Shown: one piece after another, positions 19,141 to 22,632 of the stretch
How the letters are laid out: the number at the start of each line of letters is the position of its first letter
Position numbering within the stretch: the first letter of the stretch is position 1
Origin: Chloroflexia bacterium
GTDB lineage: Bacteria > Chloroflexota > Chloroflexia > QHBQ01 > JADMIH01
DNA length: 64,000 nt
Assembly (NCBI GenBank): GCA_038203825.1
Contig: JBBRDO010000002.1
Coordinates: forward strand, 34,617-98,616
Direction of reading: 5' to 3'
Made by a program: the position numbers and the translations under genes
Notes under the pieces: model-generated
Told to the model about the DNA's origin: nothing
What the model saw: the letters and a program-made list of their open reading frames with translations, nothing else
The model's database searches: none

Positions 19141-22100
19141 CTACGGCCCGACCTCGATATTCGCAATATTGAATGAGCCGGGTATAATCAGTTCTTCAAA
19201 GCTAGGGAAGTCACGCATTCCGCTCACATTCGGCTTGATCAGGCTAATTGTAATTGTGTAGTCCATGGGGATTATCGAAGCTTGCTTAAGCAAAATGTCG
19301 TGCGCCTGCAAATACAGGTCCATGCGCTTACTATTATCCGGTTCGACATCGGCTGCGTTGGTTAGCCTGTCGAAATCGTCATCTCTCCAGCCCGTCTTTT
19401 GCGTCCCATACGCTGAGTTGAACCCCACCGTCAGCCACGCGTGTGGGTCTGCATAAGGCGCACACAATTCGCTGAAGTAGATCCCCGGCACCGTGGACGG
19501 GTCACTCAACATGGTGTAATATGTGCTGGCATCAACGGCTTTGAGATTCACATCAATGCCAAGGTTGTTCTTGAGTTGTAGCTGCAGCCACTCCATACGC
19601 GGTGCCAGGTCTGGTGGAAACGGGATCGTCACCGTCGGGAAGGCTTGCCCGTCACCGTAACCTGCGCTTTCAAGATCCTTCCTGGCCGCGGCCGGGTCAA
19701 ACGACAGCTTGTTGACATCTGATGAATATCCCGGTTCCTCCGGTGGAATCAGGCTCGATGTTTGCTCGTTCTGGCCGATCAAGATCGTCTTGTCCCAATT
19801 CTCACGGTCCAGCGCCTGGGCAAAGGCCAACCTTACCCGTAAGTCATTAAATGGTGCTTGTGTGGTATGGAACGCGAAGTAACTGGTGCAATTCCCGATA
19901 TTTCCCGTCGCTTCCGCCTCGAGTTGAGGATCCTTCGACACCGTATCGTAGAGCTCAGGCGGTACTATGAAAGCGTCCAACTCCCCCACCCTGTAAGCCT
20001 GGAGAGCCGTCGAAGAGTCATTAATATAGCTGACTATTATTTCGTTGGTTTTCGGGTTGCCCGACCTGTAATTGTAATTAGCGCCGAGCGAAATGCCCTG
20101 ATCGTTAAACTGCTTCAGGATAAACGGGCCGTTGCCCACATAATATAAGCCATCAGCATTGGTGTCCCAGTTCACGCCGCCCTTCTCCACCAGGTCCTGC
20201 CGAACCGGATCGCCTATCCACAGCGTCAAAACATACGGGAAATAAGCCGCAGGAGCATGCAGCGTGAAGACTATCGTCTTGTCGTCCAGCGCTTTCACGC
20301 CCAGCTTGTTCATCATTTCCGTAATCTTCGCCGTGTCCGAATCAGACGTGGAGTCCAATTCATATGCGCCCTCGATATCGTATGCAAGCCAGCCGTATGA
20401 CTTGCCGTGGACTCTCGGATCGAGCAGTCGTTTCCAGGCGTACTCAAAGTTGCGTGCCGTTAGCGGTGTGCCGTCCGAATACGCGAGGTTATCTCTCAGC
20501 TTCAGCGTATACCTGAGCCCATCCGACGACACCTCCCACGATTCGGCAGCGGCGGGAACGGGCTGAAGCTTGTCGTTTACCGTGAGCAGACCTTCGTAAA
20601 CGAGCGAGGCAAGGCCGATCTCCTCACCTGTTGCTCGCTGCGGATCCAGTTCGCCGGGCATGTTGGTCATTCTCACACGCAGTATGCCCTGGGCGCCGCT
20701 CCCTGTCACCGCTGCGCCCCCAGTTGCCGTGCCCTCCGGCGTCTCCTTCCCTGGGACAGTGGCCGTATCGACTACCTGAGCTACTTCCGAGGGTGTCACC
20801 TCCCCCTTGCTCGAGATCTCTGTGGCAGTGGCTATTACCGCCACCCTGCCCGGCGTCGGTGTGCTCGCAAGCACGGCGTTTGGCCCTCCCGGCTTAATAA
20901 GAAACACCAGAGCTAGCAGCGCGACCGCAACAAGCCCAATCCCCCCACCTATGGCTGCCAGCCGTTTACCCCCACCCGTAGCCATGGCCTTATCAACTGC
21001 GATAGGCGCGGGCGAAGCGCTGATCCGTCTCGAAGCATCAACTGTCTTCTCCGCAGCACTAACCAACAGAGCATCGACCTCGCCCTTGCTCGGTACGACA
21101 TCTCTCACTTGAGATATTGTCGTCTTGGCTGCCGACAGTGCGCTCCTGGACGCCGTAGCGTCTTCCACATCGCGCAGCCGGGCTTCTTCTTTCGCCCTAA
21201 GAGCACTACGCAGTATTTCTGCTGCACCAACGTGCTCATCGTCCACGAGCAACGCCGAGCGCGCCTTTTCAATGGCAGTCTGCCAATCTCCTTTACGGCT
21301 CGCATCCTGGGCCTCAAGGAATAGAGCATTAGCAGGTGAGAGTGTCGGCGCAGCTTCTGCTTGCCCCGCCTTGGTGCTTTCAATCTGCGGCTCCGGACCG
21401 GCCCGGGGCGTAGAGACAGGCTTAACAACGTCAATGGGCGGTATCGAGACCGCAGGCGTCGCAGGAGCCACGGTGCTGGAAGCAGACGTAGAGGGAGGCG
21501 GCGCAGCCACTACGGGAGCCGGCAGCGACGAGATGTCAAACAGGTGCCCGTCCGCTGCCCTCGTATAAAGTACGGGCGTTGCCCACTCAAGAGCGTGGTT
21601 CTCTGTAAAGATCGCCATGCGCGCTTCGAAGAGAGCGTTCTCGACCGGGTGCCCGCCCGCCACGGCCGCGTAAAAGGCCTGGCTGAACGTCTTTGCTGCG
21701 CCGTCCGTGATCTCGAATTGCATCGCCACCACAGCGGGGATCCCCTGCTGCACCAGGCTCTGAGCCGTCCCAGAGAATGGGTCCGTGCGGTCGGCGCGCG
21801 CCCCCTCGCAAGCATTGAGTATGACAAGCGCAAGCGTGCGGTAATTATGCACCAGCCAGCCGAGTTGCTGCCCGCTCACCAAACGGCCCCGCCCGCTTTC
21901 GTCCTTCAGTACCACTACCCCTTCTTGCGTCTGGCGATCGAACGCGCCATGCCCTATGAAGTGCAGTATATGGTAAGGCCCCGACTGCAGCTTCTTGCGC
22001 AACACCGGCAGCGTGGCATCGTCCAGCAAGTCAATCTGCACCAGCCCACGCTCTTCCAGCGGGCCGAGAGCTTCCTTTATCTGCGCCCACTCCTGCTCCA

Positions 22101-22632
22101 CGTCAAGCTTCGGGTAGTCTCCCGGGTTCGAGATCATGACAAGCACCCGCAATGGCAACGTCACCGCGACAGGGCGTGTGCGTTCAGGCATGTCAAGATA
22201 CCGCACAATCGCAAGCTCGTCATCCAGGGCAAGAAAGCGATTGAGCGAAGTGCTGAAAAGGTACTCCCACGGCAAGTCAGCAAGCTCAGGCGTGTCCGTA
22301 AAGCGCAGACGCATCCGCAGCCGCGTTTCCCGCTGAGCTGAGGCGCTTAGACTGCTGCGCCAGCACCCCTGTACATCGCCGTTGAAGACCGCCTGAAATA
22401 GATTACCCCCGAACCTCTTGGCGGCCGCCACGTCCGGCGCATCTATGCGTCGCACGCCGCGCATACCCGGTCGCGTAGTGAGGATGAAGTTCTGCAGCTC
22501 AATATCCGAAAAAGGCAACACGAATGTGGCCGAAGCCTGCCCCTCGGTCGAATCCGCACGAACACGATAGGCATCGCCCTCGCGCTGGAAGAATAGGTCG
22601 AAATTCTGGTAAATAGGATCGGGCATAGGCAT
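19141..22632 (-). CDS. Single-pass membrane protein: N-terminal CHAT (caspase-like) protease, TPR-like helix pair, TM helix, extracellular OppA/SBP_bac_5 peptide-binding domain
   Basis: LADLPWEYL, LHFIGHG (His), VILNACEG (Cys), AVVAMQFEI, WATPVLY; TM KRLAAIGGGIGLVAVALLALVFLI; LDPQ, YEGLL, SDGTPLTARNFEYAWKR, VGNGPF. Confidence 0.88.
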   Translation of the reverse strand: MPMPDPIYQNFDLFFQREGDAYRVRADSTEGQASATFVLPFSDIELQNFILTTRPGMRGVRRIDAPDVAAAKRFGGNLFQAVFNGDVQGCWRSSLSASAQRETRLRMRLRFTDTPELADLPWEYLFSTSLNRFLALDDELAIVRYLDMPERTRPVAVTLPLRVLVMISNPGDYPKLDVEQEWAQIKEALGPLEERGLVQIDLLDDATLPVLRKKLQSGPYHILHFIGHGAFDRQTQEGVVVLKDESGRGRLVSGQQLGWLVHNYRTLALVILNACEGARADRTDPFSGTAQSLVQQGIPAVVAMQFEITDGAAKTFSQAFYAAVAGGHPVENALFEARMAIFTENHALEWATPVLYTRAADGHLFDISSLPAPVVAAPPPSTSASSTVAPATPAVSIPPIDVVKPVSTPRAGPEPQIESTKAGQAEAAPTLSPANALFLEAQDASRKGDWQTAIEKARSALLVDDEHVGAAEILRSALRAKEEARLRDVEDATASRSALSAAKTTISQVRDVVPSKGEVDALLVSAAEKTVDASRRISASPAPIAVDKAMATGGGKRLAAIGGGIGLVAVALLALVFLIKPGGPNAVLASTPTPGRVAVIATATEISSKGEVTPSEVAQVVDTATVPGKETPEGTATGGAAVTGSGAQGILRVRMTNMPGELDPQRATGEEIGLASLVYEGLLTVNDKLQPVPAAAESWEVSSDGLRYTLKLRDNLAYSDGTPLTARNFEYAWKRLLDPRVHGKSYGWLAYDIEGAYELDSTSDSDTAKITEMMNKLGVKALDDKTIVFTLHAPAAYFPYVLTLWIGDPVRQDLVEKGGVNWDTNADGLYYVGNGPFILKQFNDQGISLGANYNYRSGNPKTNEIIVSYINDSSTALQAYRVGELDAFIVPPELYDTVSKDPQLEAEATGNIGNCTSYFAFHTTQAPFNDLRVRLAFAQALDRENWDKTILIGQNEQTSSLIPPEEPGYSSDVNKLSFDPAAARKDLESAGYGDGQAFPTVTIPFPPDLAPRMEWLQLQLKNNLGIDVNLKAVDASTYYTMLSDPSTVPGIYFSELCAPYADPHAWLTVGFNSAYGTQKTGWRDDDFDRLTNAADVEPDNSKRMDLYLQAHDILLKQASIIPMDYTITISLIKPNVSGMRDFPSFEELIIPGSFNIANIEVGP

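Follow-up and report, generated by a model that had tools for sequence, protein, structure and literature searches.

A 64,000-nucleotide stretch of the genome of a Chloroflexia bacterium (called the window here; contig JBBRDO010000002.1, our contig C2 of genome G000) contains on its minus strand a gene that joins a CHAT caspase-like protease, through a single putative membrane segment, to a complete solute-binding protein (SBP) fold, and 22 bp upstream of it, on the same strand, a small gene of the Trypco1 (Pepco) family. We propose, as an evenly poised reading of the sequence data, that the two genes form a module for cell death or defence which senses its trigger on the outer side of the cell, i.e. 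a sensor-gated protease paired with a pore toxin. The linkage of the Trypco1 gene supports such a module, since the two genes share a strand across a short gap, with a promoter-like site before them and a hairpin after them. A first-pass annotation of the same DNA had described a one-component receptor, and in this respect it has to be replaced by a two-gene arrangement. The features of the locus are the following (window coordinates; aa, amino acids; pLDDT, predicted local distance difference test score).

23143 to 23171, minus strand: sigma-70-like promoter match (TTGACT, 17 nt, TATAGT; 10/12), about 90 bp upstream of the Trypco1 start; a match to the consensus only, with 5 such sites in the 4.7-kb region vs 2.3 expected.
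23055 to 23060, minus strand: Shine-Dalgarno sequence GGAGGA, 4 nt ahead of the Trypco1 ATG, read from the sequence.
22655 to 23050, minus strand: Trypco1/Pepco gene, 131 aa from ATG 23050 (PF19493, NCBIfam CU044_2847).
19141 to 22632, minus strand: receptor-protease gene (CHAT, membrane segment, SBP_bac_5), 1163 aa, or 1161 aa from ATG 22626.
21523 to 22632, minus strand: conserved CHAT module, predicted cytoplasmic, aa 1-370 (alignment A1, AlphaFold2, Foldseek).
21337 to 21522, minus strand: Pro/Ala/Ser-rich linker, aa 371-432, predicted disordered (pLDDT 37-44).
21034 to 21336, minus strand: helical region, aa 433-533 (full-length AlphaFold2 model).
20890 to 20964, minus strand: single hydrophobic (putative transmembrane) segment, aa ~557-581, after GGGKR (Kyte-Doolittle scan).
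20698 to 20886, minus strand: Thr/Pro/Ala/Gly-rich stalk, predicted extracytoplasmic, aa 583-645 (sequence; pLDDT below 50).
19144 to 20697, minus strand: complete OppA/DppA-type (cluster C) solute-binding fold, aa 646-1163 (Pfam, PDB relatives, model).
19456 to 19470, minus strand: pocket motif changed to ELCAP, aa 1055-1059, in the place of GWCAD (415-419) in Salmonella OppA.
19077 to 19113, minus strand: hairpin with a 15-bp stem, 28 bp past the receptor stop, terminator-like with a tail that is not T-rich; consensus match only.

The receptor-protease gene is one uninterrupted open reading frame (ORF) of 1163 aa, as the first-pass annotation had it. Translation probably starts at the second ATG (22626), 7 nt after GAGG and at a better Shine-Dalgarno spacing than the first ATG; the database copy P0002 (1161 aa) fits this start. 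The two domains that had been named from the letters alone both lie far above the curated Pfam cut-offs, i.e. CHAT (PF12770) at aa 100-355 with E 1.4e-31 and 110.5 bits (cut-off 24), and SBP_bac_5 (PF00496) at aa 690-1070 with E 2.5e-71 and 241 bits (cut-off 32.4). The NCBIfam hits are OppA-type equivalogs and HetF, all of them sub-threshold (for HetF E 1.1e-24, 87 bits vs a cut-off of 1200). A 19-residue Kyte-Doolittle scan found exactly one hydrophobic segment (peak at aa 561-579, mean 2.72) and no signal-peptide-like hydrophobic stretch at the N-terminus, so that the single membrane helix preceded by KR, claimed earlier, has its counterpart in the segment after GGGKR. The Pro/Ala linker, the helix pair and the Thr/Pro stalk of the earlier description are likewise present in the sequence or in the full-length AlphaFold2 model. 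The mean pLDDT of this model is 75.5, the CHAT and SBP parts are confident, and a helix hairpin at aa 433-463 reaches a pLDDT of about 90; the long helices at 468-509 and 516-533 are less confident. We infer that the receptor is a single-pass protein with its N-terminus inside and its C-terminus outside, the CHAT domain being cytoplasmic and the SBP domain extracytoplasmic, because there is no signal peptide, because of the nature of the two domains, and because a cytoplasmic location is needed for Trypco1 to be the substrate. The earlier notion of an outer sensor and an inner protease fits this architecture and topology, and elsewhere in the family the module is linked by one hydrophobic segment to many further domains of a typically extracytoplasmic kind.

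The N-terminal 370 residues are, by sequence and structural model, a CHAT caspase-like cysteine protease of predicted cytoplasmic location and predicted activity, with an intact His-Cys dyad. The dyad had been placed in the motifs LHFIGHG (aa 223-229, 21946-21966) and LNACEG (aa 272-277, 21802-21819), and both are found there, the predicted catalytic residues being His228 and Cys275. His224, His228 and Cys275 are invariant in the 40 aligned homologues of alignment A1. In the wider family the Cys motif is at the same position in all proteins (121 out of 121) and the strict His motif in 111 out of 121, where a miss of the regular expression is no proof that the His is lost. The AlphaFold2 model of aa 1-380, built from the 40 homologues (pLDDT 89.8, pTM 0.89), has an N-terminal three-stranded sheet with three helices, followed by the caspase-like core. 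The top Foldseek matches of this model are Csx29, SAVED-CHAT, separase and DdvA (E 6e-13 to 5e-10, probability 1.00); by sequence the single PDB match is 8tl0, a SAVED-CHAT protein (2.2e-9), and the SAVED_CHAT model of PADLOC matches the CHAT part at 2.3e-17.

The SBP part was described earlier as a full SBP_bac_5 domain, and both profile and model agree on a complete two-lobed cluster-C fold (pLDDT mostly 85-96). Its closest solved relative is DppE of B. subtilis (8ay0, 2.2e-53 over 492 residues); other solved relatives are B. subtilis OppA (8are), Borrelia OppA4, Salmonella OppA (1b05) and E. coli MppA, the E-values ranging from 2e-53 to 3e-40. In its closest free relatives (42-47% identity) there is a lipoprotein signal, and their genes lie beside two permease genes, hence the fold would belong outside the cell. 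The binding pocket is altered. The HMMER alignment pairs Gly415-Trp416-Cys417-Ala418-Asp419 of Salmonella OppA with Glu-Leu-Cys-Ala-Pro of the receptor, i.e. Asp419 is replaced by Pro, Gly415 by Glu and Trp416 by Leu. In Salmonella OppA, Asp419 is described as hydrogen-bonding the N-terminal amine of the bound peptide (PMC5736914; simulations in PMC6305025). The Asp is intact, within the motif GW[CI]xD[YF]PD, in P0125 and in 26 out of 26 free-relative loci (a count that leaves out L094, from the unpublished genome G097). In the receptor's own clade the position is Pro (window), Ala (P0003), Ser (P0005) or Ile (P0006 and G066), and the Asp is retained in G043 and P0010, fused proteins at a greater distance. 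Read from these alignments, the SBP fold is intact, and the classic peptide anchor appears to have been given up and to be drifting in the window's clade. The extracellular peptide signal of the first-pass annotation is thus doubtful, since the residues that hold the peptide N-terminus are replaced, and an ordinary free peptide is probably not what the domain binds. The Dpp system of B. subtilis is described as binding a murein tripeptide (PMC10924461). The SBP domain also has distant matches in two giant proteins, P0122 (2843 aa) and P0186 (2704 aa), whose C-terminal ~470 residues match it at 28-32% identity; each protein has four matched stretches, and both proteins too are without Asp at the position of Asp419.

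A fusion of this kind calls for a check of the assembly. A Logan contig from run X1 spans 19000-23300 in one piece and another, from run X2, spans 19000-22201 and crosses the domain junction, although both samples may be the source of the window DNA. Both domains are found full length in the database proteins P0003 and P0004 (88% identity), P0005 (71%) and P0006 (69%), and within the genus G066 and G043 also have fused frames, of 1175 aa and 1223 aa respectively, so the architecture recurs in other genomes. A misassembly at the junction, against which the earlier claim of a fusion had to be secured, is rejected, as far as these data go, on the strength of the contigs together with these fused relatives. 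That the gene is an assembly or gene-calling artefact, or a decaying fusion, has a negligible probability: six independent sequences keep both frame and architecture, and the CHAT module is 89-99% identical among the fused orthologues. The other parts diverge to different degrees, with identities of 56-88% in the SBP part, 52-96% in the membrane segment and 20-66% in the linker. All other matches of the SBP part in the 301 genomes of the class that were searched are free binding proteins of ~600 aa (this tally takes in four unpublished genomes, G097, G193, G261 and G153, on which no claim depends). By the same search the fused gene is patchy in the genus, with 3 copies in 26 same-genus genomes.

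The second gene of the locus is found by mechanical calling as an ORF at 22655-23098(-), of 147 codons and beginning at TTG 23098. Its protein matches Pfam PF19493 at E 2.4e-22 (79.8 bits, cut-off 24.6) over the whole profile (1-98 of 98) and NCBIfam CU044_2847 at E 2.6e-16 (60 bits, cut-off 23); no PADLOC model matches it. The conserved core ends with Trp104-Asn-Arg and is followed by a charged C-terminal tail of ~25 aa. There is no hydrophobic N-terminus or signal sequence, so the protease and its candidate substrate would both be cytoplasmic. Kaur et al. (2020, PMC7159879) gave the names Trypco1 and Trypco2 to genes found together with trypsin-like peptidases in the conflict systems that multicellular bacteria carry, and Pepco is the new name given to both in a recent preprint (Evans et al. 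2025, PMC12642450). According to the preprint, Pepco of Streptomyces pre-assembles as 9- to 10-mer beta-barrels, the linked Avs4 trypsin-like protease cuts it after Ile97 and thereby removes a C-terminal tail of ~2 kDa, and the truncated protein kills E. coli, i.e. it is a pore toxin activated by clipping (PMC12642450).

The window's Trypco1 is the sole match in its genome (4.86 Mb, 90% complete), which has two CHAT genes. Trypco1 stands directly before all the fused genes of the genus (3 out of 3; G000, G066 and G043). The G066 locus is syntenic with the window and the G043 locus has different neighbours, from which it appears that the pair moved as a unit. A complex prediction for the CHAT module (A1) and Trypco1 (alignment A2) gave a score of 0.00, which bears neither way on binding. 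The other CHAT gene of the genome, L002 (G000:C118:195-2417), encodes a 740-aa protein with CHAT, membrane segment and TPR, the module being 54% identical to that of the window. On the tree it is the sister of the Trypco1-linked gene L021; no Trypco1 fragment was found in the 195 bases ahead of the contig end.

The CHAT module with its membrane segment belongs to a large family. At E <= 1e-30 there are 8713 whole-protein matches, SBP relatives included; all but four of the best 150 match best over the module (aa ~2-480), with identities typically 45-60%. A pattern scan of one genome per species gave at least 583 relatives among at least 600 stretches, and those among the matches listed come from Chloroflexota, Acidobacteriota, Actinomycetota, Verrucomicrobiota, KSB1, others and one archaeal metagenome-assembled genome. 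The last (L068, Methanobacteriota archaeon) has a family CHAT module with 53% identity over aa 75-372, which would be either a gene transfer or a binning error. Exactly one hydrophobic segment is present in 106 out of 121 family proteins, always after the CHAT module, while 8 have none and 7 have several. The C-terminal domains are diverse, as seen in a hand tally of the precomputed Pfam column for 120 matches:

SBP_bac_5: 7 proteins of 120
LivJ-type binding protein: 2 proteins of 120
FGE-sulfatase: 12 proteins of 120
WD40-type propellers: 11 proteins of 120
PD40: 5 proteins of 120
Big_2: 6 proteins of 120
PAS-like: 5 proteins of 120
Reg_prop: 4 proteins of 120
Rhodanese: 2 proteins of 120
TPR only: about 21 proteins of 120
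No further domain: 35 proteins of 120

Beta-propellers in all make up about 16 of the 120. Two proteins, P0008 and P0009, have modules 81-83% identical to that of the window, yet carry a LivJ-type domain (Peripla_BP_6/ANF_receptor) in place of SBP_bac_5. As P0009 (82-83% module identity) combines so similar a protease with another binding protein, sensors seem to be swapped on a constant protease, and the pair suggests, by sequence, that such swapping was recent.

An iterated profile started from the window's Trypco1 found 17 Trypco1 ORFs in 80 family loci, all directly upstream of the CHAT gene and on its strand; the rest of the 5 kb around the CHAT genes had none. Sixteen of them belong to the 75 loci that have 450 bp or more of upstream DNA, whereas the remaining one, L056, has 403 bp, so that a proportion quoted as 17/75 is strictly 16/75 plus L056. 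Trypco1 is the only large recurrent upstream gene cluster of the family loci: when the upstream ORFs of the loci without it were clustered, no other gene family was present in more than 4 loci. A Pfam scan of ten of these ORFs gave DUF7379, a tandem second CHAT gene and, for the rest, genes of housekeeping or signalling that are unrelated.

In a tree built from 83 modules, genes with a linked Trypco1 group in well-supported clades from three phyla, i.e. Acidobacteriaceae, Geodermatophilus and three Chloroflexia groups including that of the window. The Trypco1 label changes 7 times on this tree vs a mean of 17.3 after shuffling, and none of 500 shuffles was as low; since related rows share labels, this speaks of stable co-inheritance and not of independent events. 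The outer domains of the Trypco1-linked receptors are TPR, TonB_C, a beta-propeller, a TctC solute receptor, or none that is recognised. Among the 18 CHAT-linked Trypco1 homologues of alignment A2 the Trp is invariant and has a basic residue within three positions in most; the tail varies from 0 to ~25 aa. What is conserved is Trp-x-Arg/Lys, and not the conserved Ile after which Pepco linked to serine proteases receives its activating cut.

Two observations on individual loci should be added. In the actinobacterium Geodermatophilus (L076) the CHAT protein at 4995-8069 ends in TctC (PF03401, E 1.5e-20), an unrelated family of solute receptors, and has Trypco1 at 4621-4968, which looks like an independent recruitment of a binding protein as outer domain. 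Four Trypco1-free loci have, as the gene immediately upstream of CHAT, one with DUF7379 (PF24096, E 3.6e-49 in L046), which may be an alternative partner:

L046, 2868 to 4973: DUF7379 gene
L070, 3369 to 4973: DUF7379 gene
L072, 3369 to 4973: DUF7379 gene
L081, 3214 to 4989: DUF7379 gene

How such a module might work can be sketched as follows. The outer domain would sense a ligand or a change in the cell envelope and would activate the CHAT protease across the membrane, the likeliest route being that receptor molecules are brought together, as with initiator caspases. The activated protease would clip the charged C-terminal tail of the cytoplasmic Trypco1, for which the conserved Trp-x-Arg/Lys at the end of the core is a candidate cut site, the predicted cut in the window's protein falling right behind Trp104-Asn-Arg106, and the clipped barrel would permeabilise the membrane and kill or arrest the cell. 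In a filamentous Chloroflexota host, cell death would protect clonal kin. The ligand could be a wall-derived, kin-derived or phage-derived compound. We also speculate that a large class of single-pass 'receptor caspases' has gone unrecognised in bacteria. They would be made of a near-invariant CHAT module, one membrane helix and interchangeable sensors, drawn from three solute-binding families, lectin folds of FGE type, beta-propellers and Ig-like domains, and the present receptor would read an extracellular molecule other than a plain peptide and clip a pre-assembled Trypco1/Pepco barrel into a lethal pore. This wider proposal is possible, and we put it forward tentatively.

Several points weigh against a module of this kind. 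The loss of Asp419, Trp416 and Gly415 could mean that the pocket binds no small ligand. The positive-inside signal at the membrane segment is weak, a plain count giving 3 Lys or Arg among the preceding 15 residues and 1 among the following 15, and aa 526-647 have no confident AlphaFold2 structure, the hydrophobic segment in this region not being modelled as a helix; the alignment has only five rows there. Trypco1 is absent upstream in 58 of the 75 loci, and therefore the protease family does not need it. The Trypco1 proteins of L009, L054, L007, L008 and L011 end 0-5 residues past Trp-x-Arg and are almost tailless. Finally, the only Pepco described as experimentally studied is cut by a serine protease after isoleucine, and not by a CHAT protease (PMC12642450).

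There are also rival explanations. The outer domain may be an anchor or a probe of envelope integrity instead of a ligand-gated receptor, with Trypco1 still the effector; the protease would be tethered at the wall or septum, or would report the loss of wall contact, and the trigger would be envelope damage or a cytoplasmic cue such as phage infection. Many ectodomains of the family bind structures or the envelope and not small molecules (TPR, Big_2, PEGA, SH3_3, TonB_C, PD40), the canonical peptide-anchoring residues are lost in the clade, with Pro, Ala, Ser and Ile at one and the same position, and DppE and MppA, which bind murein peptides, are among the nearest solved relatives. Nevertheless, the whole two-lobed fold is retained and confidently modelled, the fused G043 orthologue and P0010 keep the Asp, and the recruitment of three solute-binding families (SBP_bac_5, LivJ-type and TctC) points to ligand capture; we consider an anchor or probe unlikely. 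It is likewise unlikely, in our judgement, that the receptor is a non-lethal signalling or developmental protease that cleaves itself or a regulator, as has been proposed for HetF (in cyanobacterial cell division) and DdvA, and that Trypco1 is an adaptor or inhibitor and not a toxin. The weak NCBIfam similarity to HetF, the lack of a linked effector in most family members and the position of the locus among housekeeping genes, with no defence island, would agree with such a role, whereas the full-length Pfam match of Trypco1, whose studied family member is described as a toxin (PMC12642450), and the presence of only 3 fused copies in 26 same-genus genomes, typical of accessory conflict genes and not of core developmental genes, would not.

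The third alternative takes the SBP domain as a membrane-tethered binding protein of an ABC importer encoded elsewhere, with the CHAT part as an appendage that is regulatory or has no relation to it. Binding proteins of ABC transporters are indeed its closest free relatives, and permease homologues of Opp type are present on six other contigs of the genome. On contig C2, however, there are none, and no permease or ATPase genes of Opp type occur among the ORFs examined at 8000-34000, which bears out the earlier remark that no ABC permease or ATPase is nearby. The ligand-anchoring motif kept in all 26 free-relative loci is lost here, many of the domains to which this CHAT module is joined have nothing to do with transport, and the pairing with Trypco1 is conserved. 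We therefore regard an importer component as very improbable, and return to the sensor-gated protease with its pore toxin.

To our knowledge, the sensors of the known bacterial protease-gated death effectors (gasdermins, Pepco, EACC1, MBL and alpha/beta-hydrolase zymogens) are all intracellular. If the module fires on an outside signal, it would extend the logic of protease-gated death to outside-in signalling, so that neighbours, wall damage or a threat drawing near could make cells die or arrest ahead of any invasion of the cytoplasm; it would be an outside-in death-receptor pathway in a multicellular bacterium. The system should be tractable, as it consists of two genes, has a soluble, crystallisable sensor fold for which ligand-fishing methods are well developed, allows a Cys-to-Ala control of the protease and offers cell death as the read-out. 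The interchangeable ectodomains on a near-invariant protease module might also make a natural scaffold for ligand-gated proteolysis.

The genes around the module encode a xanthine/uracil-type permease, an aldehyde dehydrogenase, a peroxiredoxin and a glycosyltransferase. The last, a group 1 glycosyltransferase at 26134-27306(+), passes the GT4-conflict profile PF20706 (51 bits vs a cut-off of 26), and has a homologue in G066 (L113:10731-11900) at a similar distance from the module. On the other side, the ORF at 10264-11970(-) encodes 568 aa without a Pfam match; its N-terminus has a hydrophobic segment, and a unit of ~70 aa occurs twice inside it in near-identical form (FFPETGHTVNG..., FTETGKTLGG...); the first ORF of L113 begins with a similar N-terminal motif. 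At 27360-30724(+) there are four ORFs whose sequences look like tsaE, tsaB, rimI and tsaD (t6A modification of tRNA), i.e. an ordinary housekeeping context.

It is useful to compare the locus with systems already described, of which the Pepco modules are the nearest. In both, a small Trypco1 gene lies directly upstream of a sensor-fused protease with intact catalytic residues, and the window's Trypco1 also has a charged C-terminal tail. In the studied pair the protease is trypsin-like and is fused to Avs4, described as a cytoplasmic sensor of the phage portal protein, whereas here it is a CHAT protease, joined through a membrane segment to a solute-binding sensor that is predicted to be extracytoplasmic. 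The preprint also reports Pepco with serine or cysteine proteases on diverse sensors, such as FGE, membrane-spanning STAND ATPases and domains that bind peptidoglycan (PMC12642450); the term 'CHAT' is absent from its main text, and its figures and supplements may show related architectures. A caspase homologue behind an extracellular receptor domain was already suggested in 2012 for C14 metacaspases, as cyanobacteria have Peptidase_C14 metacaspases joined through a membrane helix to ANF_receptor or CHASE2 (Asplund-Samuelsson et al. 2012, PMC3501461). Those fusions differ in that the caspase fold is of family C14 and not CHAT, the sensors are others, and they are single sequences with no linked effector noted. 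The Pepco-protease principle (in the preprint) and the idea of a caspase homologue behind a receptor are thus already known. In the literature, supplements and figures lying outside the search, we found no account of a CHAT protease behind a solute-binding ectodomain or of its pairing with Trypco1, and no description of the size and modularity of the single-pass CHAT family.

Among membrane-bound CHAT proteins, DdvA is a transmembrane anti-sigma factor with TPR-CHAT, for which a transmembrane signal by proteolysis has been proposed (PMC11506125). It resembles the receptor in being a single-pass membrane CHAT protein and is a structural neighbour (8rot, E 4.8e-10), but its topology is reversed, with a periplasmic CHAT domain and a cytoplasmic zinc-binding anti-sigma domain; it is without three active-site helices, and its output is the release of a sigma factor. 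A DdvA-like anti-sigma factor was considered for the receptor and rejected, given the reversed topology and as no anti-sigma domain was found in it. The best structural matches are Csx29 of Craspase (7zoq, 6.4e-13) and SAVED-CHAT (8tl0, 8.6e-13), which are activated inside the cell by RNA or cyclic nucleotides; the receptor has no SAVED or TPR sensor and no CRISPR context. A Craspase or gasdermin system, in which the first-pass annotation had noted CHAT proteases as effectors, was set aside as well, because the flanking ORFs are Trypco1 and housekeeping genes and no gasdermin or Cas gene was seen among them (no dedicated gasdermin or Cas profile search was made). With OppA, DppE and MppA the receptor shares the full cluster-C fold, and differs in having no transporter genes nearby, its own membrane segment as an anchor instead of a lipid, and replacements of Asp419, Gly415 and Trp416.

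In general layout, the locus recalls the pathway of animal death receptors. There, an outer ligand-binding domain on a single-pass protein is connected to an initiator protease of caspase fold and finally to a pore-forming executioner that is activated by proteolysis. The analogy was drawn in the first-pass annotation for the receptor alone and has been strengthened since, as a gene from a family of protease-activated pore toxins lies directly upstream. At the same time there are clear differences: receptor and protease are here one polypeptide, there are no death-fold adaptors, and Trypco1 is unrelated to gasdermins. The resemblance is therefore by analogy only, i.e. an outer domain, one membrane passage, a caspase-like protease and a candidate pore protein would be arranged in a comparable order.

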